Assembly (NCBI GenBank): GCA_964016885.1
Contig: CAXHJY010000371.1
Coordinates: forward strand, 1-52,624
Source of the DNA: Eledone cirrhosa
Lineage: Eukaryota
Direction: 5' to 3'
DNA length: 52,624 nucleotides
Shown: positions 1 through 41,031 of the stretch, piece after piece
How positions within the stretch are numbered: position 1 is the stretch's first letter
How the letters are laid out: each line of letters begins with the position of its first letter
The notes under the pieces: model-generated
Database searches by the model: none
What the model was told of the DNA's origin: nothing
What the model saw: only the letters and a program-made list of their open reading frames with translations
Position numbers and translations under genes: made by a program

Positions 1-1545
1 GTATCCGAAAGAACGTTTGTCTGGAAACTGGTGAGTCGAAAAAAAAATATCTCGGTGGTAGTAGCAAATATTCGTATGCGAAAGAAAAGATCTCGGTGGT
101 AGTAGCAAATATTCGAACGAGACATTCGTAGGCGAAAGAAAAATATCTCGGTGGTAGTAGCAAATATTCGAACGAGACATTCGTATGCGAAAGAACGTTT
201 GTCGGTGGTAGTAGCAAATATTCGAACGAGACATTCGTATGCGAAAGAACGTTTGTCTGGAAGTGGCGATCCATGCCCGGTGGATAGTTGGTTCCGGGTT
301 TTACTATGATTGTTGCAAAACAGAAACTTAAAGGGATTGACAGAATTTGCGATTACGGAGAGGGGGCGATCCGTCTGCTTGATTCCGATAACGAACGAGA
401 CATTCGTATCCGAAAGAACGTTTGTCTGGAAACTGGTGAGTCAGTGAGTCGAAAAAAAAATATCTCGGTGGTAGTAGCAAATATTCGAACGAGACATTCG
501 TATGCGAAAGAACGTTTGTCGGTGGTAGTAGCAAATATTCGAACGAGACATTCGTATGCGAAAGAACGTTTGTCTGGAAGTGGCGATCCATGCCCGGTGG
601 ATAGTTGGTTCCGGGTTTTACTATGATTGTTGCAAAACAGAAACTTAAAGGGATTGACAGAATTTGCGATTCCGGAGAGGGGGCGATCCGTCTGCTTGAT
701 TCCGATAACGAACGAGACATTCGTATCCGAAAGAACGTTTGTCTGGAAACTGGTGAGTCAGTGAGTCGAAAAAAAAATATCTCGGTGGTAGTAGCAAATA
801 TTCGTATGCGAAAGAAAAGATCTCGGTGGTAGTAGCAAATATTCGAACGAGACATTCGTAGGCGAAAGAAAAATATCTCGGTGGTAGTAGCAAATATTCG
901 AACGAGACATTCGTATGCGAAAGAACGTTTGTCGGTGGTAGTAGCAAATATTCGAACGAGACATTCGTATGCGAAAGAACGTTTGTCGGTGGTAGTAGCA
1001 AATATTCGAACGAGACATTCGTATGCGAAAGAACGTTTGTCGGTGGTAGTAGCAAATATTCGAACGAGACATTCGTATGCGAAAGAACGTTTGTCTGGAA
1101 GTGGCGATCCATGCCCGGTGGATAGTTGGTTCCGGGCTTTACTATGATTGTTGCAAAACAGAAACTTAAAGGGATTGACAGAATTTGCGATTCCGGAGAG
1201 GGGGCGATCCGTCTGCTTGATTCCGATAACGAACGAGACATTCGTATCCGAAAGAACGTTTGTCTGGAAACTGGTGAGTCAGTGAGTCGAAAAAAAAATA
1301 TCTCGGTGGTAGTAGCAAATATTCGTATGCGAAAGAAAAGATCTCGGTGGTAGTAGCAAATATTCGAACGAGACATTCGTATGCGAAAGAAAAATATCTC
1401 GGTGGTAGTAGCAAATATTCGAACGAGACATTCGTATTCGAAAGAACGTTTGTCTGGAAGTTGCGATCCATGCCCGGTGGATAGTTGGTTCCGGGCTTTA
1501 CTATGATTGTTGCAAAACAGAAACTTAAAGGAATTGACAGAATTT
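1..1545 (+). repeat. rRNA-derived satellite array (copy 1, truncated by window start); ~263-bp core plus variable numbers of a 54-bp subunit
   Basis: Tandem periods of 317 and 521 bp and a 54-bp subunit (CGGTGGTAGTAGCAAATATTCGAACGAGACATTCGTATGCGAAAGAACGTTTGT). It carries 18S-like motifs (GATTCCGGAGAGGG, GTCTGCTTGATTCCGATAACGAACGAGAC, GAAACTTAAAGGGATTGAC) and the 28S-like motif GATCTCGGTGGTAGTAGCAAATATTC. Confidence 0.9.
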
Positions 1546-1574
1546 TCGAATCGACATCAACTCGGCTACGGCTA

Positions 1575-1925
1575 TCCCGTCGAGTACGAGAGTATCGCGG
1601 GATCAGAGCAACGGTTTGCTAGGCTGCCTCTGAGCGATAACGGCTGAACGCCTCCTCTAAGCCGGAACCCTAGCCGGACCCGAGTTGTTTTTCGACAAGC
1701 GTCTCGACCTTCTTAAGGCCCATGCCTTAGTTTGGCGATTGCCGTCCGTTCGCCGACGGCGGCAGCGTCAGCGGAAATGCCATTCTGTGACGACTACGAC
1801 GATTCGTCGTCGTCGTCGTCCATTCGATTTCCTGAAAGAGATAGAGACTAAAGTGATCAAATTGTTCGGAGTTACGTGCTTAGTAGAGCAGCTACCACAC
1901 TGCAATCTATTGAGAGTTTTCTGAC
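1575..1925 (+). pseudogene. Degenerate 28S rRNA 3'-end fragment (copy 1)
   Basis: AGTACGAGAG (sarcin-ricin loop core) at 1583-1592, then GGCTGAACGCCTC..TAAG, then AGTAGAGCAGCTACC..TGCAATCTATTGA, in the canonical LSU 3' order but with large deletions. Confidence 0.8.
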
Positions 1926-2784
1926 GAACGATACAATCCGCCCACGTGGCGCCAGAAAGGGAGAAGAAAAGAAAAGTTAGACGCCGCCGATCGATCGGTT
2001 CGTTGTTTTACGTGTACACAGCTTGTGTGTGTGTCTGTATGTGATACAAGCCGCCTATCCGTCTTCCAAGTAAGTTTTGTGTGTAGACTGCGGAAAGAAA
2101 TCCAATCCGCCGTCTAGGCGGTTCTGCCGCCGACCCATACTTTTGCGAGTCGCTCCCGGGAAAGACAGGCGGCAAGACGGCGTGTATACACGACGCCTTC
2201 CGTCTTCCGCCTCGAACCCGGCAAACGTTCCTTTATTCGTCCACGCCTTCCCGCTTCGATCGCGAGAAAGTAATCAATCTGTTTTGTGTGTGTGTCTGTG
2301 TGTGATACAAATTTGTTTTCTTAATTTGATAACCATGAATTGTTTCAACACCGGCCCTTTTAAGGGCCACTTATATTTTCAATAATCAGTTTAAATGGGT
2401 TGCACCGTAGCCACTTGGTAATACACTGCAAATCTCCCGTCAATCTATGAAGGTTTTGTAGTAGATTAGATCAAAACACAATCAGCAAGACAGTAATGGA
2501 ATGAATAATATAAACATTTGTTTATAATTAAAGCCTTAAGATGTCCCTCCCTCCCTCCCTTCCTTCCTTCCTTCCTTCCTTCCTTCCTTCCTTCCTTACG
2601 ATATACACTTTAATAACATTGAAACTTATTTAATAAGTTTAAATTTTAAACACTTTTTATTCAGACGTACCGCGATAAGTAACTAGATATGTTCTAACGA
2701 ATAATCCGCGATGTGGCGAGGATTACCGCGATAGGAAATTAGATACGTTCCAAAGAAATATCCGCGAAAAGTGAACCGCGATAT

Positions 2785-2865
2785 AGCGGGTTCACCAGCC
2801 AGTGTATTACTGGTACTTTATTTTATCGACCCCCATAAGGATGAAAGGCAAAGTTAACTGTGCAA
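2785..2865 (-). mobile_element. SINE fragment (octopus-type tRNA-SINE body)
   Basis: Reverse complement of TTAACTTTGCCTTTCATCCTTA..GGGGTCGATAAAATAAAGTACCAGT, also present at 3.1, 8.2, 12.7, 24.3 and 27.9 kb. Confidence 0.65.
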
Positions 2866-2953
2866 TAACAAAGGGAGATAACCTCGTCTTTTTTTTTTTA
2901 CGGAGTTATTTCCCTTTAAATTTTATCTATTACTTATGATGATACAATTTAAT

Positions 2954-3085
2954 CAGTTCTTAGCTGTCGAGACACTGCATCCTTTAAAACCTCCATGGAA
3001 CAAGCTACCTGCAACAGTTGTTAGCTGTCGAGACACTGCATCTTTTAAAACCTCCATGGAACAAACTACCTGCATCAGTTGTTAG
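2954..3085 (+). repeat. 61-bp tandem repeat (~2.2 copies) derived from the 3' end of CR1 ORF2
   Basis: TTAGCTGTCGAGACACTGCATCCTTTAA and CATGGAACAAACTACCTGC match the reverse complement of ~15280-15340 (WNKLPASIVSCRDTASFK). Confidence 0.8.
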
Positions 3086-3143
3086 GGTCTGAGTTCAAAT
3101 CACGCCGAGGAGGTTAACTTTGCCTTTCATCCTTACGGGGTCG
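3086..3143 (+). mobile_element. SINE fragment with B-box-like GAGTTCAAATC
   Basis: Nearly identical to 12658-12712. Confidence 0.65.
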
Positions 3144-3351
3144 GTCGGAAAACGAACCATTCCCGGTTCGCTTTCGAAGCGGGTTTCCGAAAACAGCGCT
3201 TCTCTCGACCGGGCCCGTCGTCCGCTCGGCGGTGGTTTTCATCGTCCCAGGCACGGCTAACAGGCGGAGACGGGACAAACGCGCGTGTTCCTTTTTTTAT
3301 CAGCCGCAGCGCCGTTCGTATATATGCTTAGGTTGTTTTTTTTTTAAATAT

Positions 3352-3584
3352 CCTAAGTTAAGTTGGGGCTAAGTTAAGTTGGGGCTAAGTTAAGTTGAGG
3401 TTAAGTTGAGTTGGGGTTAAGTTAAGTGGGGGTTAAGTTAAGCTGGGGTTAAGTTAAGTTGAGGTTAAGTTAAGTTGGGGTTAAGTCAAGTTGGGGTTAA
3501 GTTAAGTTGGGGTTAAGTTAGGTTGGGGTTAAGTTAGGTTGGGGTTAAGTTAAGTTGGGGTTAAGTTAGGTTGCGGTTAAGTTA
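3352..3584 (+). repeat. 15-bp G-rich tandem repeat (GTTAAGTTAAGTTGGG-like), telomere-like
   Basis: About 15 copies of TTAAG-TTAAG-TTGGGG with TTAGG variants. Confidence 0.95.
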
Positions 3585-6500
3585 CATTCGCCGCCGGACT
3601 TCAGCTTCCTCATTTAGCATGGGCAGTTTTTCTTGAAAATCACACCACACACAGCAAATGTGTGTCCGCACATGTACCAGTAATTACAGATCGATTCCGG
3701 TGAAAATTCACTGAAAACGGGCCATCCGGCCCTGTGCGTCGATCGTGGGCCGGCCGGATGTTGACGGATCGATGTGTAATTAGAAGTACATGTGCGGACA
3801 CTCATTGGCTGTGCGTGGTATGCATTTCAGCAAGATATCTCCGTAACATCAAGAGTTATGGCTGTGGAGGCACACCTAGTCAAACGTAAACAAGGTCTGG
3901 AGCGTTTACGCTTCGCGATTTTGTTTACGTTTGACTAGGTGTGCCTCCACAGCCACAACTCTTGATGTTACGGAGATATCTTGCTGAAATGCATACCGCG
4001 CACAGCCAATGAGTGTCCGCACATGTACTTCTAATTACACATCGATCCGTCAACATCCGGCCGGCCCACGATCGACGCACAGGGCCGGATGGCCCGTTTT
4101 CAGTGAATTTTCACCGGAATCGATCTGTAATTACTGGTACATGTGCGGAGACACATTTGCTGTGTGTGGTGTGATTTTCAAGAAAAGCTGCCCATGCTAA
4201 ATGAGGAAGCTGAAGTCCGCCGGCGAATGGTGTGCTTCGAAGAAAACTAATTCGAAAATGACCGTTTGCAGGCGGAGTAACCTTTTCGATCGTGGGCCAG
4301 CCGCCCGTGGTGGGATCCATCTGTAATTACTGGTACATGTGCGGACATACATTTGCTGTGTGTGGTGTGATTTTCAAGAAGAACTGCCCATGCTAAATGA
4401 GGAAGCTGAAGTCCGCCGGCGAATGGTGTGCTTCGAAGAAAACTAATTCGAAAATGACCGTTTGCAGGCGGGGTAACCTTTTCGATCGTGGGCCAGCCGC
4501 CCGTGGTGGGATACATCTGTAATTACTGGTACATGTGCGGACACACATTTGCTGTGTGTGGTGTGATTTTCGAGAAAGACTGCCCATGCTAAATGAGGAA
4601 GCTGAAGTCCGCCGGCGAATGGTGTGCTTCGAAGAAAACTAATTCGAAAATGACTATTTGCCGGCGGAATCACCTTTTCGGTCCTGGTCCGGCCGGATCT
4701 TGCCGGATCGATCGGAAATTTGTGGACCATGTTCGGAAGGCCATTGTGCATGTGTGGTGAAAAAAATTTGTGTCGAAATCTTCTCGGAAAATAACGGATC
4801 GCCGGCGGAGATTGCCATTTCGATCGTGGGCCGGCCGGATCTTGTCGGATCGATTCGGACATATGTGCATCGTGTTCGCAAGGCCCTTGTCTATGTGTGG
4901 TGTGATTTTCATAAAGAAATTCCGAAAAACCCAGTTTTAAATCTGATTTCGCCAAAGAATTTTGGCTATCAGATCGGGTTGAAAGGTATGGTTTCAGGTC
5001 GATCTGAAAGTCTAAAATGGAATTCACTCGGTTAGCTAACTATTGATATTTCGGAGATATCTTTCTGAAAATCACACCACACACTCCCAATGAGTGTCTG
5101 CACATGTACCAGTAATTACAGATGGATCCCACCACGGGCGGCCGGCCCACGATCGAAAAGGTTACTCCGAAGCACACCATTCGCCGGCGGAATTCATTTA
5201 GCATGGGCAGTTTTTCTCGAAAATCACACCACACACAGCCAATGAGTGTCCGCACATGTACCAGTAATTACAGATGGATCCCACCACGGGCGGCTGGCCC
5301 ACGATCGAAAAGGTTACTCCGCCTGCAAACGGTCATTTTCGAATTAGTTTTCTTCGAAGCACACCATTCGCCGGCGGACTTCAGCTTCCTCATTTAGCAT
5401 GGGCAGTTTTTCTCGAAAATCACACCACACACAGCAAATGTGTGTCCGCACATGTACCAGTAATTACAGATCGATTCCGGTGAAAATTCACTGAAAACGG
5501 GCCATTCTGCCCTGTGCGTCGATCGTGGGCCGGCCGGATGTTGACGGATCGATGTGTAATTAGAAGTACATGTGCGGACACTCATTGGCTGTGCGTGGTA
5601 TGCATTTCAGCAAGATATCTCCGTAACATCAAGAGTTATGGCTGTGGAGGCACACCTAGTCAAACGTAAACAAGCTCTGGAGCGTATACGCTTCGCGATT
5701 TTGTTTACGTTTGACTAGGTGTGCCTCCACAGCCACAACTCTTGATGTTACGGAGATATCTTGCTGAAATGCATACCACGCACAGCCAATGAGTGTCCGC
5801 ACATGTACTTCTAATTACACATCGATCCGTCAACATCCGGCCGGCCCACGATCGACGCACAGGGCCGGATGGCCCGTTTTCAGTGAATTTTCACCGGAAT
5901 CGATCTGTAATTACTGGTACATGTGCGGACACACATTTGCTGTGTGTGGTGTGATTTTCACGAAAAACTGCCCATGCTAAATGAGGAAGCTGAAGTCCGC
6001 CGGCGAATGGTGTGCTTCGAAGAAAACTAATTCGAAAATGACCGTTTGCAGGCGGAGTAACCTTTTCGATCGTGGGCCAGCCGCCCGTGGTGGGATACAT
6101 CTGTAATTACTGGTACATGTGCGGACACACATTTGCTGTGTGTGGTGTGATTTTCGAGAAAGACTGCCCATGCTAAATGAGGAAGCTGAAGTCCGCCGGC
6201 GAATGGTGTGCTTCGAAGAAAACTAATTCGAAAATGACTATTTGCCGGCGGAATCACCTTTTCGGTCCTGGTCCGGCCGGATCTTGCCGGATCGATCGGA
6301 AATTTGTGGACCATGTTCGGAAGGCCATTGTGCATGTGTGGTGAAAAAAATTTGTGTCGAAATCTTCTCGGAAAATAACGGATCGCCGGCGGAGATTGCC
6401 ATTTCGATCGTGGGCCGGCCGGATCTTGTCGGATCGATTCGGACATATGTGCATCGTGTTCGCAAGGCCCTTGTCTATGTGTGGTGTGATTTTCATAAAG

Positions 6501-7415
6501 AAATTCCGAAAAACCCAGTTTTAAATCTGATTTCGCCAAAGAATTTTGGCTATCAGATCGGGTTGAAAGGTATGGTTTCAGGTCGATCTGAAAGTCTAAA
6601 ATGGAATTCACTCGGTTAGCTAACTATTGATATATCGGAGATATCTTTCTGAAAATCACACCACACACTCCCAATGAGTGTCTGCACATGTACCAGTAAT
6701 TACAGATGGATCCCACCACGGGCGGCCGGCCCACGATCGAAAAGGTTACTCCGAAGCACACCATTCGCCGGCGGAATTCATTTAGCATGGGCAGTTTTTC
6801 TCGAAAATCACACCACACACAGCCAATGAGTGTCCGCACATGTACCAGTAATTACAGATGGATCCCACCACGGGCGGCTGGCCCACGATCGAAAAGGTTA
6901 CTCCGCCTGCAAACGGTCATTTTCGAATTAGTTTTCTTCGAAGCACACCATTCGCCGGCGGACTTCAGCTTCCTCATTTAGCATGGGCAGTTTTTCTTGA
7001 AAATCACACCACACACAGCAAATGTGTGTCCGCACATGTACCAGTAATTACAGATCGATTCCGGTGAAAATTCACTGAAAACGGGCCATTCGGCCCTGTG
7101 CGTCGATCGTGGGCCGGCCGGATGTTGACGGATCGATGTGTAATTAGAAGTACATGTGCGGACACTCATTGGCTGTGCGTGGTATGCATTTCACTAAGAT
7201 ATCTCCGTAACATCAAGAGTTATGGCTGTGGAGGCACACCTAGTCAAACGTAAACAAGGTCTGGAGCGTTTACGCTTCGCGATTTTGTTTACGTTTGACT
7301 AGGTGTGCCTCCACAGCGACAACTCTTGATGTTACGGAGATATCTTGCTGAAATTCATACCACGCACAGCCAATGAGTGTCCGCACATGTACCTGTAATT
7401 ACACATCGATCCGAC
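3585..7415. repeat. Palindromic higher-order satellite, array 1 (1584-bp period, 196-bp subunits)
   Basis: Identical ORF translations recur at +1584 (4443 and 6027) and on opposite strands (3614- and 4009+). Palindrome centres at ~3907, 5687 and 7271. Confidence 0.95.
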
Positions 7416-7500
7416 GACGGACAGAGTATTCGGTTTATTTTCTTGACATATTTCTTTACATATTGTCCAGGCATGCACTTTTTCCATGATTAGTTCTGTT

Positions 7501-7555
7501 GACGGCCCGCTTTCCAAAATACCTTATCCTGTGCAACGCCGGGTACCACTGCTAG
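7501..7555 (+). mobile_element. Helitron-type 3' terminus
   Basis: Subterminal GC hairpin CCTGTGCAACGCCGGG, then CTAG (7552-7555), then T. This is the canonical Helitron 3' signature; a homologue lies at 10646-10700 (-). Confidence 0.75.
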
Positions 7556-7774
7556 TATATATATGTGTATGTATATATATATATATATATTGGTAAACGG
7601 AATAGAAAATTGTGACAAATTGTTCACAGTGAAAAATAGTTTAATTAGGAATAAGTGATAATTAGTAATAGTATTGGTTAGTATTAAGTTTTGGTTTTAA
7701 GTTTTACCGGTTGCGCATTTCTAATGCTTTTCAAAAATAATTTTGAGATAGAGCGTCCGTGATGTTTGCTCTGA

Positions 7775-7820
<46 letters not shown>

Positions 7821-14334: not shown

Positions 14335-14962
<628 letters not shown>

Positions 14963-15242
14963 TAATAATAATAATAATAATGAAATGATTGTGTACAGTG
15001 CTCAGGTGCACTACAACTCATCAAAGGTGCATGTATAGTACATAGAATAATGTACAAATGTCAGGAAAATAAACAGTGTATGAGTCATGATATAATAACA
15101 ATAACAATAATGAAATATTGTGCACAGTGCCCAGGTGCACCACAACCCATCAAAAAAGTGCATGTACAGTACATAGGGCAATGCACAAACATCAGTAAAA
15201 TGAACAGTGCACACATGTGTGCATGTGTATGGAAGGGGCACA

Positions 15243-18008
15243 TCAGGTGTAGTTTTGGCGTATTTCGGGAAGCATGAGTGTCTTAAAGGATGCAGTGTCT
15301 CGGCAGCTAACAATTGACGCAGGCAGTTTGTTCCATGTTTCAGCAACTCTGAGCGTGAAAAAATGTCTGCGAAAGTCATGGGAGCTGTGCTGTTTTCTTA
15401 TCTTGTAGGCATGTCCACGTGTGTTAGACACATGGAGATCAAAGAGGCGCTCAGGGTTGCAGTTGGCGAGATGGTTAAAAACTTTGTGGGTATTCACCAA
15501 GTCCACTGCCAGATGTCGGAGCTTCAATGAATCCATGCCCAGGGAAGCAAGGCGTTCAGAGTATGGTAGGTGTCTGATGGAGGGTATGCGCTTGGTTGCA
15601 CGTCTCTGAACAGCTTCCAGGAGGTCAATGTTCCGAGCAAGATAGGGGTTCCAGACTGATGATGCGAATTCCAAGTGTGGTCGCACCATAGCTGTATACA
15701 GTTTTAAATAGATGGCTGGAGAGCGGCTAACAAAGGTCTTGCTGAGTGATGCCAAGACACCCTCGGCCTTCTTGACAATCTTAGAGACATGCTTTGTCCA
15801 ACGCAAATCGTTGCCGACAGTAATGCCCAGGTCACGTTCACAAGAGGACTTTTTGATGTCAGTGTTGTGGAGGGAGTATGTGGACGCTGGATTTTTCCTT
15901 CCAAAATGCATGGTGGTACACTTGTCCACAGCCAGCTTCAGTTGCCAGTCTGTGATCCATTGCTGCATTGTGTCCAGGTCTGATTTTAGGAAAGAGTTGT
16001 AAATTTCAGGATCAGTCCTTTTGATTTCAAGGTACAGCTTGATGTCATCTGCATATTTTAGTACCGTGGCATTCTGTAAGTTGGCATCTATGTCATTAAT
16101 ATATGCCACAAACAAAAGAGGACCAAGAACAGATCCCTGTGGTACACCAGATGACATCTCATATGGTGAAGAATGCTGTCCTAGAACCGTGACTACTTTC
16201 CTTCGGCTGAGAATGAAGGATTTCAGCCAGTCGAAAAGATCATCCCTCACACCCATTGCAGAGAGTTTTGCCATAAGTCTTTTGTGTGGCACAGAATTAA
16301 AAGCCTTAGCAAAGTCAAGGTAAACAACATCCACCCATGAGCCGCTGTCAGTGATCCGGGTGATGTCCTCAAGGAACTCGATAAGCTGATCACAGCAGCT
16401 GGAGTTAGGGATAAATCCAAACTGTGAGGGCCGGATGAGGCTGTGAGAGCTCCAGAAGTTCCAAAGTGTTTCTCTGACACAGGATTCCATCAGTTTGGCC
16501 ATACAGCTAGTAAGACTGACTGGACGATAGTTGACAGGTGACATGCGGTTGCCCTTTTTGAACAGGGGAATGACACTGGCAGTTTTCCACTGCTCCGGAG
16601 TAGCACCATTGCTGAGACAGTATTGAAAGAAAAAAGAAAGCTGGCGCAAAAGGAAATCCCCGCCACGTTTGAGAAGCAGGTATGTCACACCATCAAGACC
16701 AGGGGAGGCATAGTTGCGCTTATTCTTAAGGTGACGTCGCAACATTGCAGGTGTAAATTCCATAGTTGTTATGGAATTTGATGTTAGAGATGGTGGAGAT
16801 GGTACATTCTGGTTTTCAACAGTAAAAATACTTGCATAGCACTCAGCAATGAGTTCTGCGCATTCCTTGGGATCGTCAGTGATCTGGCTTGTGTGGGGAT
16901 TGCGAAGAGGACCAACTGGAGAGTGAGGTCTCTGCTTTGAATGAACATATTTCCAGAACACCTTACTGTCAGGATTGGTTGCGATGCACTGTTCAAATTC
17001 AAGCACTGCCTTCTTTGTCACTTGCTTGAGATGGTTAGAAGATTTATTCCGCTTTTTTCTGTTGGCATCTGATCTATGCAGTTTATATTCCCGTTCAGCG
17101 TTCCGACGTTCTTTCCTGGCAAGTCGGACTGCTGAAGTTTCCCAGATTGCACTTTTGGGGTGGTTATTTTTCCGCTTCCGTGGCACTGATGCTGCACACG
17201 CTATCCATATTGAGTCCAGGATGCTCTGGAGTATAGAGTTCACATCTCCAGAGTTATACATCTCATGCCAGTTTGGGCGCTGTAGCTCAGTGCAGTACAA
17301 GTTCCAATCCGCCCTCTTCCAATCAAAGCAAGCAGATTGGAGATGGCTCTGGTTTTTGTTGCTGCCCTCAAGTGCCAGATTGGCAATGATCATAGCATGA
17401 TCAGAGTCGCCTAGAGGTTCCTCAGTAGTACAACTGATAACCACTTCAGGAGTAGTGGTGAAGATCAGGTCCAAAGTGTTGTCACCTCTTGTTGGAGAGG
17501 TGACTACTTGTGACCAGTTTGAGTCCAGCACTAGTTCAAGGAAATCGTTTGCACCCTGTGGCCAACGAAAGGTTTCCCAATCGATCTCAGGATGATTGAA
17601 GTCACCTGCAATAAACACATAAGTGGCTGTTTTCTTGGCAGCAACTCTGAGGATATCGCAAAGCTGTGTGTCCTGATGGTAGTTTGGGGGGCGATAAACA
17701 ACACCAAGCAGAAGTGTTGACATGGTCATACGTATGTCACAGAAAAAAACTTCTTCCTGTGATTCGTTCAAATCAACGCAAGGAATTACCGAAAAGTTTG
17801 AACGAACGTAGACCATCACACCACCACCACGGCGGTTAATGCGGTCCTTGCGGAAAAGGTTGTACCCAGTAATGGTGAAAACCCCATCACAGAGTAAGGA
17901 ATGTGCCCATGTTTCCGTGACTGTGATGAAGTCAGGGTCGATGCTTCTGACGTAGGATTCGAACAGATGTATCTTGTTGCATAAACTGCGAGCATTTAAG
18001 GACAACAA
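15243..18008 (-). CDS. CR1-like ORF2: APE endonuclease plus reverse transcriptase (921 aa as called from a TTG; no ATG start)
   Basis: EN motifs LNARSL, VTETW, AGDFN, TLDL, SDH. RT motifs NYRPVSLTS, QFGF, YLDFAKAF, GVPQGSVLGP, YADD. CR1-type C-terminus TRGHAYKI..FFTLRVAETWNKLP. Confidence 0.95.
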   Translation of the reverse strand: MLSLNARSLCNKIHLFESYVRSIDPDFITVTETWAHSLLCDGVFTITGYNLFRKDRINRRGGGVMVYVRSNFSVIPCVDLNESQEEVFFCDIRMTMSTLLLGVVYRPPNYHQDTQLCDILRVAAKKTATYVFIAGDFNHPEIDWETFRWPQGANDFLELVLDSNWSQVVTSPTRGDNTLDLIFTTTPEVVISCTTEEPLGDSDHAMIIANLALEGSNKNQSHLQSACFDWKRADWNLYCTELQRPNWHEMYNSGDVNSILQSILDSIWIACAASVPRKRKNNHPKSAIWETSAVRLARKERRNAEREYKLHRSDANRKKRNKSSNHLKQVTKKAVLEFEQCIATNPDSKVFWKYVHSKQRPHSPVGPLRNPHTSQITDDPKECAELIAECYASIFTVENQNVPSPPSLTSNSITTMEFTPAMLRRHLKNKRNYASPGLDGVTYLLLKRGGDFLLRQLSFFFQYCLSNGATPEQWKTASVIPLFKKGNRMSPVNYRPVSLTSCMAKLMESCVRETLWNFWSSHSLIRPSQFGFIPNSSCCDQLIEFLEDITRITDSGSWVDVVYLDFAKAFNSVPHKRLMAKLSAMGVRDDLFDWLKSFILSRRKVVTVLGQHSSPYEMSSGVPQGSVLGPLLFVAYINDIDANLQNATVLKYADDIKLYLEIKRTDPEIYNSFLKSDLDTMQQWITDWQLKLAVDKCTTMHFGRKNPASTYSLHNTDIKKSSCERDLGITVGNDLRWTKHVSKIVKKAEGVLASLSKTFVSRSPAIYLKLYTAMVRPHLEFASSVWNPYLARNIDLLEAVQRRATKRIPSIRHLPYSERLASLGMDSLKLRHLAVDLVNTHKVFNHLANCNPERLFDLHVSNTRGHAYKIRKQHSSHDFRRHFFTLRVAETWNKLPASIVSCRDTASFKTLMLPEIRQNYT

Positions 18009-18064
18009 TTTGTACCCTGCTCGCAGTCTATGATGGTGTGTAGAGGGTGGCAGGTTGTTCTGGT

Positions 18065-18219
18065 TTAGTTTCCCAGAGTTGTAGCAGTTTTTACATTGCC
18101 AGTTATTGTGGGTAGATCACACTCAGACCAGCTGGTATCTCTCTTCCACGTTTCACCCGCCTTGACAAACCTCCAGATCTGCCCATCATCACGCAGACTG
18201 AAACTTTCATCTTGTGCTG
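18065..18219 (-). pseudogene. Probable C-terminal remnant of CR1 ORF1 (…KTATTLGN*)
   Basis: Open frame from the element 5' edge to TAA at 18067-18065, overlapping the ORF2 frame at -1. Confidence 0.6.
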
Positions 18220-18282
18220 TATATATATATATATACACACGTGTGTGTGTATTTATGTATATATATATATATACACACACAC

Positions 18283-18490: not shown

Positions 18491-18839
18491 CTGTCTCTCT
18501 CCCTGTCTCTCACTCTCCCTCTATCCCCCCTCTCTGTCTCTCTCTCCCCCCCCTCTCTCTCTCTAGTAGTAGAGAGAGACAAAGAGAGAGAGATATAAAC
18601 GTATAACCCTAACCAAACCCTAACCCCAACCCTAACCCTAACCTAACCCTAACCCATCTCTCTCTCTCTCTCACCCCCTCTCTCTCTCTCTAGTAGTAGA
18701 GAGAGAGACAAAGAGAGAGAGAGATATAAACGTATAACCCTAACCCAACCCTAACCTCTCTCTCTCTTCTCTCTCTCTCTCTCCCCTCTCTCTCTCTATT
18801 CCCCCCTCTCTATTTCCCCCCCCCTCTCTCTCTAGTAGT

Positions 18840-19059: not shown

Positions 19060-19430
19060 AATCAAAATATGCTGTTAGTTAGATCTGCATTGCGTACATT
19101 TTATATAATTTATGCCAGTTCCTTTTCTGCATATCGAACATGGCCATTTCCCTGACGGAATAGAGTTTTGTCCTCTTTCGTGACACAAAGTACAGCCAGC
19201 GGCATCATTGCGGACAGACTTAATCCCGAATTGCACTGACACACTGCCTCGCAATACGGAACACCGCACGTCTTTGATCTTCTTCCCGTCGATCAGCCTC
19301 CTTGCCATGCTAAGTACACCTGACGTCTAGCTTCTCTCTTAGCGGCGGCTTTATATTCTTCTCTACTCCCACTAATTTTCCAAGCATTCCATGCTAGCCT
19401 TTAGTCTCCAATGGCCCGATCTACCGTGCT
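19060..19430 (-). pseudogene. RTE-clade LINE fragments (zinc-finger region joined to C-terminus)
   Basis: SGKWPCSICRKGTGINYIKCTQC; duplicated at ~20975-21350. Confidence 0.7.
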
Positions 19431-20484
19431 GTCCCACCACCATGTCACTCTCTGTCTGGTTGGAACTCTGATCCAGCCACAAGTTTAATCAGTAGCCTGC
19501 AATAAGTTGTCACATAAGAAAATCGAGTTCTCATGTATGTCATACGACTGTGAATCGTCTTCTTTTTCGTCATACACATATTGAAGGGCTTTCCTAAATT
19601 TCTATTTTAGTGAAATCTCTTTTAGCTTCCAGACCTTTCTTTTTTCCACATCTTCCTGTATGTCTCAATCATACCTGGAGCTGTCCAACATGACCATTGA
19701 AATCCCCTGCTAGCATAACGATGTCTCCGTCCTGTCATTGTGGCTGTTTGTAAAAATTGCTTGTAAATGAAGTCTTTCTTTTCTTTACCTAGCAGAAGCA
19801 ATTAACACTAACCCAACTGTAACACTAACCCTAACACTAACTTATGCAGGCCTAGGTAAAGACAAGAAAGATAAAACAAGGAGTGATGCTTCTTGAATTT
19901 TGTGATGCAAGTGTTTTAACCATTTGCAAAACCAACTTCCACAAACCTGCCTCACTGCCGCCTAATAACCTACAAATCAGGCAAGCACAGAAGCCGGATT
20001 TCTCGGTAGTTAGGAAGCGAGACAGACAGATGGGGTGTGAAGTACCAGGGTGTGCCCCGGGGAGGAATGTTTCCCACAGCGTGGGTTGGTTGTTGGTGAT
20101 GTCTCGGTTATCTTGAGACGGAGTGAGACGTGCAGGAATACTCTCACGGAATCGCCAAATGAGGTTTATTTTTCAACATAGTCCCTGGAATGAAACAATG
20201 TGGTTATTAAGAAGAATTGAAATTAATGTAAGATTTCACAGATCTATGATCAATCCTTCACAGTCAGCTTACAAAGTTTTCAGCCAAACCTTGTGTATTT
20301 CCAACATTTCAAACCCTATCTAGGACTACATTATCTAATGTACAGTACAGTAGTTAGTATTAGTGGCTATCAGACATAGTGTATCTAAATGCAACATTTT
20401 TAACATTGTTTTTTTTTTCTTTTCTTTTCTTTTCTTATTCAGATGACAGACGGCAGAGGATACAATAGAAGAAAAGAACAATGA

Positions 20485-28614: not shown

Positions 28615-28702
28615 ACCCTAACCCTAAACCTAACCCCAACTCCAACTCTGACCCTAAACCTAACCCCAACCCCAACCCTAACCCTAACCCTAACCCTAAC
28701 CC
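28615..28702. repeat. Interstitial telomeric repeat (CCCTAA)n, partly degenerate
   Basis: About 14 hexamers; the last four are perfect and abut the 172-bp array. Confidence 0.9.
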
Positions 28703-29996: not shown

Positions 29997-30002
29997 AATT
30001 GA

Positions 30003-32517
30003 GATCGGAGAGGGAGCGATCCGTCTGCTTGATTCCGATAACGAACGAGACATTCGTATCCGAAAGAACGTTTGTCTGGAAACTGGTGCAGTCAGTGAGT
30101 CGAAAAAAAAATATCTCGGTGGTAGTAGCAAATATTCGAACGAGACATTCGTATGCGAAAGAACGTTTGTCGGTGGTAGTAGCAAATATTCGAACGAGAC
30201 ATTCGTATGCGAAAGAACGTTTGTCTGGAAGTGGCGATCCATGCCCGGTGGATAGTTGGTTCCGGGTTTTACTATGATTGTTGCAAAACAGAAACTTAAA
30301 GGGATTGACAGAATTTGCCATTCCGGAGAGGGGGCGATCCGTCTGCTTGATTCCGATAACGAACGAGACATTCGTATCCGAAAGAACGTTTGTCTGGAAA
30401 CTGGTGAGTCAGTGAGTCGAAAAAAAAATATCTCGGTGGTAGTAGCAAATATTCGAACGAGACATTCGTATGCGAAAGAACGTTTGTCTGGAAGTGGCGA
30501 TCCATGCTCGGTGGATAGTTGGTTCCGGGTTTTACTATGATTGTTGCAAAACAGAAACTTAAAGGGATTGACAGAATTTGCGATTCCGGAGAGGGGGCGA
30601 TCCGTCTGCTTGATTCCGATAACGAACGAGACATTCGTATCCGAAAGAACGTTTGTCTGGATACTGGTGAGTCAGTGAGTCGAAAAAAAAATATCTCGGT
30701 GGTAGTAGCAAATATTCGTATGCGAAAGAAAAGATCTCGGTGGTAGTAGCAAATATTCGAACGAGACATTCGTAGGCGAAAGAAAAATATCTCGGTGGTA
30801 GTAGCAAATATTCGAACGAGACATTCGTATGCGAAAGAACGTTTGTCGGTGGTAGTAGCAAATATTCGAACGAGACATTCGTATGCGAAAGAACGTTTGT
30901 CGGTGGTAGTAGCAAATATTCGAACGAGACATTCGTATGCGAAAGAACGTTTGTCGGTGGTAGTAGCAAATATTCGAACGAGACATTCGTATGCGAAAGA
31001 ACGTTTGTCGGTGGTAGTAGCAAATATTCGAACGAGACATTCGTATGCGAAAGAACGTTTGTCTGGAAGTGGCGATCCATGCCCGGTGGATAGTTGGTTC
31101 CGGGTTTTACTATGATTGTTGCAAAACAGAAACTTAAAGGGATTGACAGAATTTGCGATTCCGGAGAGAGGGCGATCCGTCTGCTTGATTCCGATAACGA
31201 ACGAGACATTCGTATCCGAAAGAACGTTTGTCTGGAAACTGGTGAGTCAGTGAGTCGAAAAAAAAATATCTCGGTGGTAGTAGCAAATATTCGAACGAGA
31301 CATTCGTATGCGAAAGAACGTTTGTCGGTGGTAGTAGCAAATATTCGAACGAGACATTCGTATGCGAAAGAACGTTTGTCTGGAAGTGGCGATCCATGCT
31401 CGGTGGATAGTTGGTTCCGGGTTTTACTATGATTGTTGCAAAACAGAAACTTAAAGGGATTGACAGAATTTGCGATTCCGGAGAGGGGGCGATCCGTCTG
31501 CTTGATTCCGATAACGAACGAGACATTCGTATCCGAAAGAACGTTTGTCTGGAAACTGGTGAGTCAGTGAGTCGAAAAAAAAATATCTCGGTGGTAGTAG
31601 CAAATATTCGAACGAGACATTCGTATGCGAAAGAACGTTTGTCGGTGGTAGTAGCAAATATTCGAACGAGACATTCGTATGCGAAAGAACGTTTGTCTGG
31701 AAGTGGCGATCCATGCCCGGTGGATAGTTGGTTCCGGGTTTTACTATGATTGTTGCAAAACAGAAACTTAAAGGGATTGACAGAATTTGCGATTCCGGAG
31801 AGAGGGCGATCCGTCTGCTTGATTCCGATAACGAACGAGACATTCGTATCCGAAAGAACGTTTGTCTGGAAACTGGTGAGTCAGTGAGTCGAAAAAAAAA
31901 TATCTCGGTGGTAGTAGCAAATATTCGAACGAGACATTCGTATGCGAAAGAACGTTTGTCGGTGGTAGTAGCAAATATTCGAACGAGACATTCGTATGCG
32001 AAAGAACGTTTGTCTGGAAGTGGCGATCCATGCTCGGTGGATAGTTGGTTCCGGGTTTTACTATGATTGTTGCAAAACAGAAACTTAAAGGGATTGACAG
32101 AATTTGCGATTCCAGAGAGGGGGCGATCCGTCTGCTTGATTCCGATAACGAACGAGACATTCGTATCCGAAAGAACGTTTGTCTGGAAACTGGTGAGTCA
32201 GTGAGTCGAAAAAAAAATATCTCGGTGGTAGTAGCAAATATTCGTATGCGAAAGAAAAGATCTCGGTGGTAGTAGCAAATATTCGAACGAGACATTCGTA
32301 TGCGAAAGAAAAGATCTCGGTGGTAGTAGCAAATATTCGAACGAGACATTCGTATGCGAAAGAACGTTTGTCGGTGGTAGTAGCAAATATTCGAACGAGA
32401 CATTCGTATTCGAAAGAACGTTTGTCTGGAAGTTGCGATCCATGCCCGGTGGATAGTTGGTTCCGGGCTTTACTATGATTGTTGCAAAACAGAAACTTAA
32501 AGGAATTGACAGAATTT
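30003..32517 (+). repeat. rRNA-derived satellite array (copy 2, complete)
   Basis: Seven units with periods such as 263, 575 and 317 bp; same 54-bp subunit as 1-1545. Confidence 0.92.
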
Positions 32518-32546
32518 TCGAATCGACATCAACTCGGCTACGGCTA

Positions 32547-32900
32547 TCCCGTCGAGTACGAGAGTATCGCGGGATCAGAGCAACGGTTTGCTAGGCTGCC
32601 TCTGAGCGATAACGGCTGAACGCCTCCTCTAAGCCGGAACCCTAGCCGGACCCGAGTTGTTTTTCGACAAGCGTCTCGACCTTCTTAAGGCCCATGCCTT
32701 AGTTTGGCGATTGCCGTCCGTTCGCCGACGGCGGCAGCGTCAGCGGAAATGCCATTCTGTGACGACTACGACGATTCGTCGTCGTCGTCGTCGTCCATTC
32801 GATTTCCTGAAAGAGATAGAGACTAAAGTGATCAAATTGTTCGGAGTTACGTGCTTAGTAGAGCAGCTACCACACTGCAATCTATTGAGAGTTTTCTGAC
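32547..32900 (+). pseudogene. Degenerate 28S rRNA 3'-end fragment (copy 2)
   Basis: AGTACGAGAG at 32555-32564; near-identical to 1575-1925. Confidence 0.8.
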
Positions 32901-34334
32901 GAACGATACAATCCGCCCACGTGGCGCCAGAAAGGGAGAAGAAAAGAAAAGTTAGACGCCGCCGATCGATCGGTTCGTTGTTTTACGTGTACACAGCTTG
33001 TGTGTGTGTCTGTATGTGATACAAGCCGCCTATCCGTCTTCCAAGTAAGTTTTGTGTGTAGACTGCGGAAAGAAATCCAATCCGCCGTCTAGGCGGTTCT
33101 GCCGCCGACCCATACTTTTGCGAGTCGCTCCCGGGAAAGACAGGCGGCAAGACGGCGTGTATACACGACGCCTTCCGTCTTCCGCCTCGAACCCGGCAAA
33201 CGTTCCTTTATTCGTCCACGCCTTCCCGCTTCGATCGCGAGAAAGTAATCAATCTGTTTTGTGTGTGTGTCTGTGTGTGATACAAATTTGTTTTCTTAAT
33301 TTGATAACCATGAATTGTTTCAACACCGGCCCTTTTAAGGGCCACTTATATTTTCAATAATCAGTTTAAATGGGTTGCACCGTAGCCACTTGGTAATACA
33401 CTGCAAATCTCCCGTCAATCTATGAAGGTTTTGTAGTAGATTAGATCAAAACACAATCAGCAAGACAGTAATGGAATGAATAATATAAACATTTGTTTAT
33501 AATTAAAGCCTTAAGATGTCCCTCCCTCCCTCCCTCCCTTCCTTCCTTCCTTCCTTCCTTCCTTCCTTCCTTCCTTCCTTACGATATACACTTTAATAAC
33601 ATTGAAACTTATTTAATAAGTTTAAATTTTAAACACTTTTTATTCAGACGTACCGCGATAAGTAACTAGATATGTTCTAACGAATAATCCGCGATGTGGC
33701 GAGGATTACCGCGATAGGAAATTAGATACGTTCCAAAGAAATATCCGCGAAAAGTGAACCGCGATATAGCGGGTTCACCAGCCAGTGTATTACTGGTACT
33801 TTATTTTATCGACCCCCATAAGGATGAAAGGCAAAGTTAACTGTGCAATAACAAAGGGAGATAACCTCGTCTTTTTTTTTTTACGGAGTTATTTCCCTTT
33901 AAATTTTATCTATTACTTATGATGATACAATTTAATCAGTTCTTAGCTGTCGAGACACTGCATCCTTTAAAACCTCCATGGAACAAGCTACCTGCAACAG
34001 TTGTTAGCTGTCGAGACACTGCATCTTTTAAAACCTCCATGGAACAAACTACCTGCATCAGTTGTTAGGGTCTGAGTTCAAATCACGCCGAGGAGGTTAA
34101 CTTTGCCTTTCATCCTTACGGGGTCGGTCGGAAAACGAACCATTCCCGGTTCGCTTTCGAAGCGGGTTTCCGAAAACAGCGCTTCTCTCGACCGGGCCCG
34201 TCGTCCGCTCGGCGGTGGTTTTCATCGTCCCAGGCACGGCTAACAGGCGGAGACGGGACAAACGCGCGTGTTCCTTTTTTTATCAGCCGCAGCGCCGTTC
34301 GTATATATGCTTAGGTTGTTTTTTTTTTAAATAT

Positions 34335-34567
34335 CCTAAGTTAAGTTGGGGCTAAGTTAAGTTGGGGCTAAGTTAAGTTGAGGTTAAGTTGAGTTGGGGT
34401 TAAGTTAAGTGGGGGTTAAGTTAAGCTGGGGTTAAGTTAAGTTGAGGTTAAGTTAAGTTGGGGTTAAGTCAAGTTGGGGTTAAGTTAAGTTGGGGTTAAG
34501 TTAGGTTGGGGTTAAGTTAGGTTGGCGTTAAGTTAAGTTGGGGTTAAGTTAGGTTGCGGTTAAGTTA
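34335..34567 (+). repeat. 15-bp G-rich telomere-like tandem repeat (copy 2)
   Basis: As 3352-3584. Confidence 0.95.
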
Positions 34568-37500
34568 CATTCGCCGCCGGACTTCAGCTTCCTCATTTAG
34601 CATGGGCAGTTTTTCTTGAAAATCACACCACACACAGCAAATGTGTGTCCGCACATGTACCAGTAATTACAGATCGATTCCGGTGAAAATTCACTGAAAA
34701 CGGGCCATCCGGCCCTGTGCGTCGATCGTGGGCCGGCCGGATGTTGACGGATCGATGTGTAATTAGAAGTACATGTGCGGACACTCATTGGCTGTGCGTG
34801 GTATGCATTTCAGCAAGATATCTCCGTAACATCAAGAGTTATGGCTGTGGAGGCACACCTAGTCAAACGTAAACAAGGTCTGGAGCGTTTACGCTTCGCG
34901 ATTTTGTTTACGTTTGACTAGGTGTGCCTCCACAGCCATAACTCTTGATGTTACGGAGATATCTTGCTGAAATGCATACCGCGCACAGCCAATGAGTGTC
35001 CGCACATGTACTTCTAATTACACATCGATCCGTCAACATCCGGCCGGCCCACGATCGACGCACAGGGCCGGATGGCCCGTTTTCAGTGAATTTTCACGGG
35101 AATCGATCTGTAATTACTGGTACATGTGCGGAGACACATTTGCTGTGTGTGGTGTGATTTTCAAGAAAAACTGCCCATGCTAAATGAGGAAGCTGAAGTC
35201 CGCCGGCGAATGGTGTGCTTCGAAGAAAACTAATTCGAAAATGACCGTTTGCAGGCGGAGTAACCTTTTCGATCGTGGGCCAGCCGCCCGTGGTGGGATC
35301 CATCTGTAATTACTGGTACATGTGCGGACATACATTTGCTGTGTGTGGTGTGATTTTCAAGAAGAACTGCCCATGCTAAATGAGGAAGCTGAAGTCCGCC
35401 GGCGAATGGTGTGCTTCGAAGAAAACTAATTCGAAAATGACCGTTTGCAGGCGGGGTAACCTTTTCGATCGTGGGCCAGCCGCCCGTGGTGGGATCCATC
35501 TGTAATTACTGGTACATGTGCGGACACACATTTGCTGTGTGTGGTGTGATTTTCGAGAAAGACTGCCCATGCTAAATGAGGAAGCTGAAGTCCGCCGGCG
35601 AATGGTGTGCTTCGAAGAAAACTAATTCGAAAATGACTATTTGCCGGCGGAATCACCTTTTCGGTCCTGGTCCGGCCGGATCTTGCCGGATCGATCGGAA
35701 ATTTGTGGACCATGTTCGGAAGGCCATTGTGCATGTGTGGTGAAAAAAATTTGTGTCGAAATCTTCTCGGAAAATAACGGATCGCCGGCGGAGATTGCCA
35801 TTTCGATCGTGGGCCGGCCGGATCTTGTCGGATCGATTCGGACATATGTGCATCGTGTTCGCAAGGCCCTTGTCTATGTGTGGTGTGATTTTCATAAAGA
35901 AATTCCGAAAAACCCAGTTTTAAATCTGATTTCGCCAAAGAATTTTGGCTATCAGATCGGGTTGAAAGGTATGGTTTCAGGTCGATCTGAAAGTCTAAAA
36001 TGGAATTCACTCGGTTAGCTAACTATTGATATATCGGAGATATCTTTCTGAAAATCACACCACACACTCCCAATGAGTGTCTGCACATGTACCAGTAATT
36101 ACAGATGGATCCCACCACGGGCGGCCGGCCCACGATCGAAAAGGTTACTCCGAAGCACACCATTCGCCGGCGGAATTCATTTAGCATGGGCAGTTTTTCT
36201 CGAAAATCACACCACACACAGCCAATGAGTGTCCGCACATGTACCAGTAATTACAGATGGATCCCACCACGGGCGGCTGGCCCACGATCGAAAAGGTTAC
36301 TCCGCCTGCAAACGGTCATTTTCGAATTCGTTTTCTTCGAAGCACACGATTCGCCGGCGGACTTCAGCCGCCTCATTTAGCATGGGCAGTTTTTCTCGAA
36401 AATCACACCACACACAGTAAATGTGTGTCCGCACATGTACCAGTAATTACAGATCGATTCCGGTGAAAATTCACTGAAAACGGGCCATTCGGCCCTGTGC
36501 GTCGATCGTGGGCCGGCCGGATGTTGACGGATCGATGTGTAATTAGAAGTACATGTGCGGACACTCATTGGCTGTGCGTGGTATGCATTTCAGCAAGATA
36601 TCTCCGTAACATCAAGAGTTATGGCTGTGGAGGCACACCTAGTCAAACGTAAACAAGCTCTGGAGCGTATACGCTTCGCGATTTTGTTTACGTTTGACTA
36701 GGTGTGCCTCCACAGCCACAACTCTTGATGTTACGGAGATATCTTGCTGAAATACATACCACGCACAGCCAATGAGTGTCCGCACATGTACTTCTAATTA
36801 CACATCGATCCGTCAACATCCGGCCGGCCCACGATCGACGCACAGGGCCGGATGGCCCGTTTTCAGTGAATTTTCACCGGAATCGATCTGTAATTACTGG
36901 TACATGTGCGGACACACATTTGCTGTGTGTGGTGTGATTTTCACGAAAAACTGCCCATGCTAAATGAGGAAGCTGAAGTCCGCCGGCGAATGGTGTGCTT
37001 CGAAGAAAACTAATTCGAAAATGACCGTTTGCAGGCGGAGTAACCTTTTCGATCGTGGGCCAGCCGCCCGTGGTGGGATACATCTGTAATTACTGGTACA
37101 TGTGCGGACACACATTTGCTGTGTGTGGTGTGATTTTCGAGAAAGACTGCCCATGCTAAATGAGGAAGCTGAAGTCCGCCGGCGAATGGTGTGCTTCGAA
37201 GAAAACTAATTCGAAAATGACTATTTGCCGGCGGAATCACCTTTTCGGTCCTGGTCCGGCCGGATCTTGCCGGATCGATCGGAAATTTGTGGACCATGTT
37301 CGGAAGGCCATTGTGCATGTGTGGTGAAAAAAATTTGTGTCGAAATCTTCTCGGAAAATAACGGATCGCCGGCGGAGATTGCCATTTCGATCGTGGGCCG
37401 GCCGGATCTTGTCGGATCGATTCGGACATATGTGCATCGTGTTCGCAAGGCCCTTGTCTATGTGTGGTGTGATTTTCATAAAGAAATTCCGAAAAACCCA

Positions 37501-40500: not shown

Positions 40501-41031
40501 TCATAAAGAAATTCTGAAAAACCCAGTTTTAAATCTGATTTCGCCAAAGAATTTTGGGTATCAGATCGGGTTGAAAGGTATGGTTTCAGGTCGATCTGAA
40601 AGTTTAAAATGGAATTCACTCGGTTAGTTAACTTTTGATATATCGGAGATATCTTTCTGAAAATCACACCACACACTCCCAATGAGTGTCTGCACATGTC
40701 CCAGTAATTACAGATGGATCCCACCACGGGCGGCCGGCCCACGATCGAAAAGGTTACTCCGAAGCACACCATTCGCCGGCGGACTTCATTTAGCATGGGC
40801 AGTTTTTCTTGAAGATCACACCACACACAGCCAATCAGTGTCCGCACATGTACCAGTAATTACAGATGGATCCCACTACGGGCGGCTGGCCCACGATCGA
40901 AAAGGTTACTCCGCCTGCAAACGGTCATTTTCGAATTCGTTTTCTTCGAAGCACACCATTCGCCGGCGGACTTCAGCTGCCTCATTTAGCATGGGCAGCT
41001 TTTCTCGAAAATCACAACACACACAGCCAAT
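34568..41031. repeat. Palindromic higher-order satellite, array 2
   Basis: Centres at ~34890, 36670, 38254 and 39838; the last unit has an internal deletion. Confidence 0.95.

Follow-up and report, generated by a model that had tools for sequence, protein, structure and literature searches.

A conserved slippery heptamer at the ORF1–ORF2 junction of a CR1-type LINE in Eledone cirrhosa suggests expression of ORF2 by −1 ribosomal frameshifting

Results and discussion

Organization of the LINE copy and its ORF1–ORF2 junction

The window analyzed here (52,624 nt, contig CAXHJY010000371.1 of Eledone cirrhosa, assembly GCA_964016885.1) carries a CR1-type LINE copy on its minus strand (Table 1). The 5′ truncation at about 18220 lies inside the microsatellite, and the start of ORF1 is absent from the window copy. 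The 3′ end of ORF1 reads CTG GGA AAC TAA, and the heptamer G_GGA_AAC was located at 18074–18068, right before the ORF1 stop, as the sequence-only reading of this DNA had claimed. This is the sole strict in-phase heptamer among the 455 positions of a full ORF1; random codon triples contain one in 0.125% of draws. The ORF2 frame is indeed open from 18116 and runs to 15243, with 957 codons open in the window, 941 of them after the slip site. It contains the Pfam domains PF03372, PF14529, and PF00078 and a C-terminal RGH..FF..R..WN.LP motif, which we take to be CR1-type. No protease domain was found in the LINE by domain search.

Table 1 Features of the LINE copy and its ORF1–ORF2 junction in the window.
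Feature	Position	Strand	Remark
CR1-type LINE copy, 5′-truncated	14961..18220	-	in TA/CA microsatellite
3′ UTR	14961..15242	-	two copies of a ~131-nt unit, both with (TTA)n-like repeats at the end
ORF2 frame (APE endonuclease + RT)	15243..18116	-	−1 relative to ORF1
First in-frame ATG of ORF2	17814..17816	-	residue 101, within endonuclease
Strong hairpin	17980..18032	-	15-bp outer stem (arms 18032–18018, 17994–17980); z −6.0
Endonuclease motif I (NARS)	17985..17996	-	
CCTGC/GCAGG stem	18016..18054	-	5 bp; weak, not conserved
33-nt junction core	18048..18080	-	families A and B differ at 1 position; flanks differ 14–27%
In-frame CTG	18051..18053	-	A at −3; first near-cognate codon past ORF1 stop
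3′ end of ORF1 (51 codons plus stop)	18065..18220	-	
ORF1 stop TAA	18065..18067	-	adjoins heptamer
Slippery heptamer G_GGA_AAC (X_XXY_YYZ)	18068..18074	-	in phase with ORF1

ORF2 had been described as having no ATG until about residue 64. The lack of an early ATG holds, since the first one lies inside the endonuclease; its position, however, is residue 101, which is 61 residues into the endonuclease counted from motif I. In the two families described below, the first in-frame ATG lies 251 nt (family A) and 194 nt (family B) past the stop, within the endonuclease in both, and the first AUGs past the ORF1 stop are out of frame with ORF2. Two details of the earlier description needed correction. 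The slip does not lead directly into motif I, as 23 codons intervene, and simultaneous slippage under the standard model would give G-N-L at the junction instead of G-K-L. A junction core of 33 nt, whose boundaries were set after the alignment was viewed, is nearly invariant between families A and B.

The LINE copy has been amplified within a repeated unit of ~31–40 kb: 29 of the 40 scored identical matches lie on contig C28 (124.7–126.35 Mb) at a spacing of ~35 kb, and blocks of the window itself recur about 31 kb apart (1–7800 and about 30000–40900). Elsewhere in the window, a degenerate match to eukaryotic LSU rRNA, covering its 3′ end (1556–1938, plus strand, 61.6 bits), and histone 3′ stem-loop matches (2348–2392 and 33323–33367, plus strand) were observed; no histone ORF was recognized by eye upstream of the 2348–2392 stem-loop. 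Upstream of the CR1 copy, a decayed endonuclease fragment of another LINE with a GDFNGHVG motif, presumably RTE-like, occupies 19150–19760 (minus strand). Interstitial telomere-like (TTAGGG)n-type repeats occur at 18604–18655, 28615–28702, and 3354–3584, among several satellite arrays.

Type of the element

In full-length copies, ORF1 encodes 430–485 amino acids from its ATG and consists of a Cys/His-rich N-terminus, a Q/H-rich linker, and a coiled coil–RRM–CTD part like that of L1 ORF1p. In the structure model, the C-terminal half folds like human L1 ORF1p (pLDDT 84; best Foldseek E-value 1.7e-5), and the ten top Foldseek matches were human L1 ORF1p chains. The tail was modeled with low confidence (the two final blocks have pLDDT values of 55 and 44). 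According to passages of Metcalfe and Casane (2014, PMC4120745), CR1 ORF1s with an N-terminal PHD plus a type II part constitute type IIC. The element shares with that lineage, as those passages describe it, an APE-RT ORF2, an L1 ORF1p-like C-terminal half, and a Cys-rich N-terminus. It differs in that the PHD of that type lacks Pfam confirmation here: only weak zinc-finger matches with E-values above 1 were obtained for the N-terminus. With this reservation, the modeled ORF1 fits type IIC. Named ORF1 homologs come from Octopus vulgaris, and named matches of the ORF2 protein come from stork, turtle, Hydra, and fluke. In the ORF2 tree, built without an L2 outgroup, the subclade of the element did not join the stork/turtle pair.

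Conservation of the junction in two young families and related species

The best 40 DNA matches of the window insertion were identical segmental copies of it and were rejected as evidence of conservation. A 25-mer spanning the junction had 444 exact matches spread over many places. With a pattern anchored in the flanks, the heptamer was kept in 98 and the heptamer together with TAA in 97 of the 100 matches listed, counted by eye (211 matches in total). Among 20 dispersed copies, six had a complete ORF1 and four an uninterrupted ORF2 of 941 codons. An in-frame ATG before motif I, which the sequence-only reading had named as evidence against its own proposal, was absent from all 20. Since family A, the family of the window copy, is young, conservation inside it is uninformative.

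Protein searches with P0002 and P0122, in which the fetched copies belonged to families A and B, revealed family B as a young sister family 84% identical to family A. The heptamer was present in 32/32 fetched copies with the junction, 31 of which also had the TAA; this tally omits the truncated L163 and also L164, which belongs to family A and has its heptamer mutated. In family B, the ORF2 frame opens just three codons before the heptamer and no other heptamer lies there, so any slip must fall at G_GGA_AAC. In contigs of related species (runs X2 and X9; organisms A and B), both bases flanking the junction have changed (18075 and 18064) and in-frame indels occur upstream, yet no change was listed in the heptamer or the stop. 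No joints were seen in the X2 and X9 contigs, whose RNA origin is a guess, and this is no firm guide to expression or splicing. The conservation on which the sequence-only reading had made its proposal depend was found in family B, in the related-species contigs, and, as an amino-acid trace, in distant homologs. The window copy itself, which lacks the ORF1 start, only preserves the signal of its family.

Degenerate patterns designed to reach remoter families returned either no matches or copies of families A and B alone in the animal's own genome. Loose ends in the related-species contigs pointed to a third family, for which the search gave no matches, and no relatives were found among the viral contigs searched. 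The N-termini of ORF2 homologs as set by gene callers were mostly uninformative and were discarded as evidence.

Two family B copies, L059 (−2) and L151 (+1), have ORF1 and ORF2 fused in one frame of 1348 amino acids by indels in an A6 run shortly before the heptamer, and they are natural mimics of the predicted fusion. They are also what would be expected if active elements had one continuous ORF, the break being either a defect or a gap bypassed by polymerase slippage in the upstream A-run. However, L059 and L151 represent two different single-copy indels, whereas the split layout occurs in hundreds of dispersed copies of both young families and in the related species. The two-ORF layout is therefore the family state, with a fused frame in only 2 copies examined, and the continuous-ORF explanation is largely refuted and has only a very slight chance of being correct.

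Probable protein trace of the heptamer in distant ORF1 homologs

We searched for distant homologs with the C-terminal half of ORF1 and obtained 72 cluster representatives, most of them 24–48% identical. A tail was readable after the last conserved Trp in 64 of these, and the other eight were dropped. Gly-Asn occurred in 49 of the 64 tails and Gly-Asn, Lys-Asn, or Glu-Asn in 62, whereas shuffling within tails gave 8.5 and 20.7, respectively (maxima 19 and 33 of 5000). Gly-Asn was 26 times denser in tails than in protein bodies (4.4% vs 0.17% per position). Its position floats from 3 to 36 residues past the last Trp and from 0 to 23 residues before the stop. A residue without a G-ending codon never preceded Gly-Asn (0/49; expected 19.9%). 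Gly, Lys, and Glu are unlike as residues, yet all three fit heptamers of the X_XXA_AAC type. At the level at which these homologs were read, the dipeptides appear to be the protein trace of slippery heptamers, and they constitute the strongest evidence of this study. This evidence is at the protein level, with DNA read for L171 and linkage to ORF2 seen for a minority of homologs.

L171, the nearest relative with DNA, belongs to the same ORF2 subclade (support 1.0) and has A_AAA_AAC 6 nt after its ORF2 frame opens, with no ATG. P0149 and P0006, also of this subclade, form a pair double-coded along 14 residues (7 in the runner-up pair), and this double coding forces A_AAA_AAY before the stop. 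Counting against the frameshift, the first residue of P0006 is an in-frame Met, encoded 14 codons ahead of the ORF1 stop.

Alternatively, the dipeptides could serve the tail of ORF1p as a protein motif or reflect a different RNA signal; in that case, the heptamer would be a by-product and ORF2 would be expressed via an IRES, splicing, or an internal promoter. Ser or Gln precedes Gly-Asn in 40 of the 49 tails, which could mark a peptide motif, and some heptamers of the survey described below coincide with ORF1 protein motifs (AKNL and TPL). A protein motif is hard to reconcile with the exchange of Gly for Lys or Glu, with the variable position in a tail of low model confidence, with slippery codons wherever DNA was readable (P0149/P0006 and L171), and with the excess of heptamers over the synonymous null in the survey (18 vs 6.1). 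We regard this explanation as improbable.

RNA structure and a candidate near-cognate start codon downstream of the heptamer

A CCTGC/GCAGG stem had been put forward as a possible stimulator of the slip. The stem exists and begins 13 nt downstream, but it folds no better than shuffled sequences (z −0.10), is lost in family B, and was rejected as a stimulator. No stimulatory stem was detected 5–9 nt downstream of the heptamer (z −0.31 in family A and +1.02 in family B), and within 3–15 nt of it only helices of 5–6 bp start (z about 0). An ACAAC/GUUGU pseudoknot that could form in families A and B was considered unconvincing, having only 5 bp. A UGGGA overlapping the heptamer, which we assume to be a TURBS-like motif, was also rejected, as it lies too near the stop and related species have lost it.

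A much stronger hairpin (18032–17980) starts 35 nt after the heptamer and covers two out-of-frame ATGs (17995 and 17982). Family B retains its 9-bp base, in which one A-U pair has become G-C, although the hairpin as a whole is weaker there (z −1.8) and carries mismatches in older subfamilies. Known stimulators lie 5–9 nt and at most 12–15 nt downstream, with spacers of 3–15 nt, in the sections of a review consulted here (PMC5009743); a distance of 35 nt exceeds these spacers. An effect of this hairpin through a trailing ribosome, or stimulation by poly(C)-binding protein via a C-rich stretch, is speculation.

An in-frame CUG sits 11 nt past the stop and 18 nt before the strong hairpin, and both families as well as the related-species contigs retain the codon together with its context, including the A at −3. 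This arrangement would suit termination–reinitiation of the SART1/L1 kind, in which the hairpin would pause scanning and hide the two out-of-frame AUGs, so that initiation at the CUG would yield a separate ORF2p. In keeping with it, the hairpin is strong in family A (z −6.0) and has one compensatory pair in family B, SART1 is stated to require RNA structure downstream of the ORF1 stop (excerpts of PMC10275272 and PMC3894237), and L1 ORF2 initiation is described as AUG-independent (excerpt of PMC5009743). However, reinitiation leaves unexplained both the Gly-Asn, Lys-Asn, or Glu-Asn of 62/64 ORF1 tails, which frequently lies many codons ahead of the stop, and the phase-specific heptamers of the survey. 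The weakening of the hairpin outside family A and the loss of the UGGGA in related species also speak against it, and no in-frame AUG was found at or just past the ORF1 stop. Reinitiation at the CUG as the route to ORF2p is unlikely, though less so than the other two alternatives; frameshifting and non-AUG reinitiation need not exclude each other.

Proposed mechanism and comparison with known systems

ORF2 lies in the −1 frame of ORF1, the heptamer is in phase with ORF1 and conserved, and no AUG precedes the endonuclease in frame. The inference of a gag-pol-style fusion drawn in the sequence-only reading is supported by this layout, phase, lack of AUG, and conservation. We infer that ORF2 is probably made as an ORF1–ORF2 fusion by programmed −1 ribosomal frameshifting at G_GGA_AAC (probability of roughly 0.75); the slip, its product, and its efficiency belong to the predicted part. 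At UAA, the majority of ribosomes would terminate, and ORF1p would be released. A few would slip, with tRNA-Gly moving from GGA to GGG and tRNA-Asn from AAC to AAA, and would read on through G-N-L into ORF2, giving a fusion of about 1400 residues (457 + 941 in copy L032). With slips this rare, the ORF1p:ORF2p ratio would be high. The heptamer may sustain the slip at its own low rate, with either slow termination at the neighboring stop or the conserved 3′ stretch as a helper. The part of PMC5009743 used here places both G_GGA_AAC and A_AAA_AAC with the heptamers most prone to shifting. We do not file the element as a proven gag-pol-type case, because it has no canonical stimulator and the slip is a prediction from sequence.

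As in −1 frameshifting of viral and LTR gag-pol, as far as PMC5009743 was consulted, an in-phase heptamer ends an ORF for a nucleic-acid-binding structural protein, and the polymerase ORF follows in the −1 frame with no downstream start codon. In contrast to the gag-pol cases of that source, the present element is of the non-LTR type; a protease domain was not found in it, a stem or pseudoknot is missing at 5–9 nt, the stop adjoins the heptamer, and the frameshift is a prediction. In two APE-type non-LTR elements, Dictyostelium TRE5-A and TRE3-A, ORF2 is stated to depend on a −1 frameshift (excerpts of a review, PMC5911963); these are amoebal tRNA-targeting elements, not CR1 (the same excerpts). 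With SART1 and L1, the element has in common a bicistronic LINE RNA, and with SART1 a structure past the ORF1 stop, which SART1 needs (portions of PMC2881922, PMC3894237, and PMC10275272). SART1 and L1 reinitiate at an AUG at or past the stop (portions of the same papers and of PMC5009743), whereas here no in-frame AUG precedes the endonuclease and the heptamer is conserved. The translation of LINE ORF2 is called an open question in a passage of PMC3894237, and the worked examples given in the review passages at hand (SART1 and L1) are cases of reinitiation.

No paper on frameshifting in CR1 appeared among the results listed by our literature searches. Older papers on chicken or turtle CR1 or on mosquito T1/Q may have suggested it. 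The word "frameshift" does not occur in the portions available of PMC4120745 (nor does "overlap" there) and PMC13343379, and the corresponding portion of PMC1925062 uses it only for broken copies.

If ORF2 is expressed by −1 frameshifting, ORF2p would be tethered to the trimer domain of ORF1p and made at a fixed low ratio. Frameshifting would also explain the many CR1 ORF2s that lack a start codon, alter their annotation, and provide a large natural collection of −1 sites from animals, which seem to function without a canonical stimulator. The conserved slippery site allows a direct and cheap test.

Survey of CR1-like elements

To the distant homologs we added two scans comprising 160 CR1-like loci from JGI metagenomes and from contigs binned into prokaryote MAGs, the CR1 contigs in the latter being taken to be host DNA. 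An endonuclease start was present in 82 loci (78 dropped) and an ORF1 candidate in 61 of these (21 dropped), and 57 elements remained after removal of four near-duplicates. ORF2 overlapped ORF1 in the −1 frame in 27 elements and in the +1 frame in 11, whereas 14 same-frame and 5 non-overlapping elements were left unscored. A strict in-phase heptamer was found in the overlap of 18 of the 27 −1 elements, compared with 4.4 after codon shuffling, 6.1 after synonymous resampling (maximum 13 of 3000), and 2 and 4 when the two wrong phases were read; the lineages are related, and these counts are not independent. The heptamer rate was 15 per 1000 codons in the overlap and 2.5 in ORF1 bodies, and none of the 11 +1 elements had a strict heptamer. 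The second set alone, although small, gave 4/8 (p 0.004).

A strict heptamer was missing in nine of the 27 −1 elements, and an in-frame ATG lay near the junction in 11 of the 19 JGI −1 elements. Downstream structure with z below −2 accompanied one of the 18 sites; short hairpins about 11 nt downstream were seen in L071 and L072. U_UUA_AAC directly precedes the ORF1 stop, with ORF2 in the −1 frame, in L071 and L175/L176. Compared with esterase-type CR1 carrying U_UUA_AAC, the element described here has another ORF1 type, G_GGA_AAC, and an invertebrate host, so the slip signal is not tied to one ORF1. The predicted −1 mechanism is common but not universal among CR1-like elements. That it is an ancient and general route to RT for a large part of CR1-type LINEs has, in our judgment, slightly better than even odds.

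Several other layouts were observed in the survey. A −1 overlap subclade without a strict heptamer (L087, L107, and L119) shares xxG GGG GAA, a G-run, in the overlap, which is possibly a non-canonical slip site. ORF2 is in the +1 frame in the CR1-like subclades of L092, L099, L104, L109, L120, and L123. In the 14 same-frame loci, ORF2 lies behind a single stop, and several frames start right at the ORF1 stop. The arrangement of the +1 and same-frame lineages suggests +1 slippage, readthrough, or reinitiation. Finally, animal-type CR1 LINE contigs occurred in many GTDB prokaryote genome bins (loci L171–L250), where they are probably host contamination.
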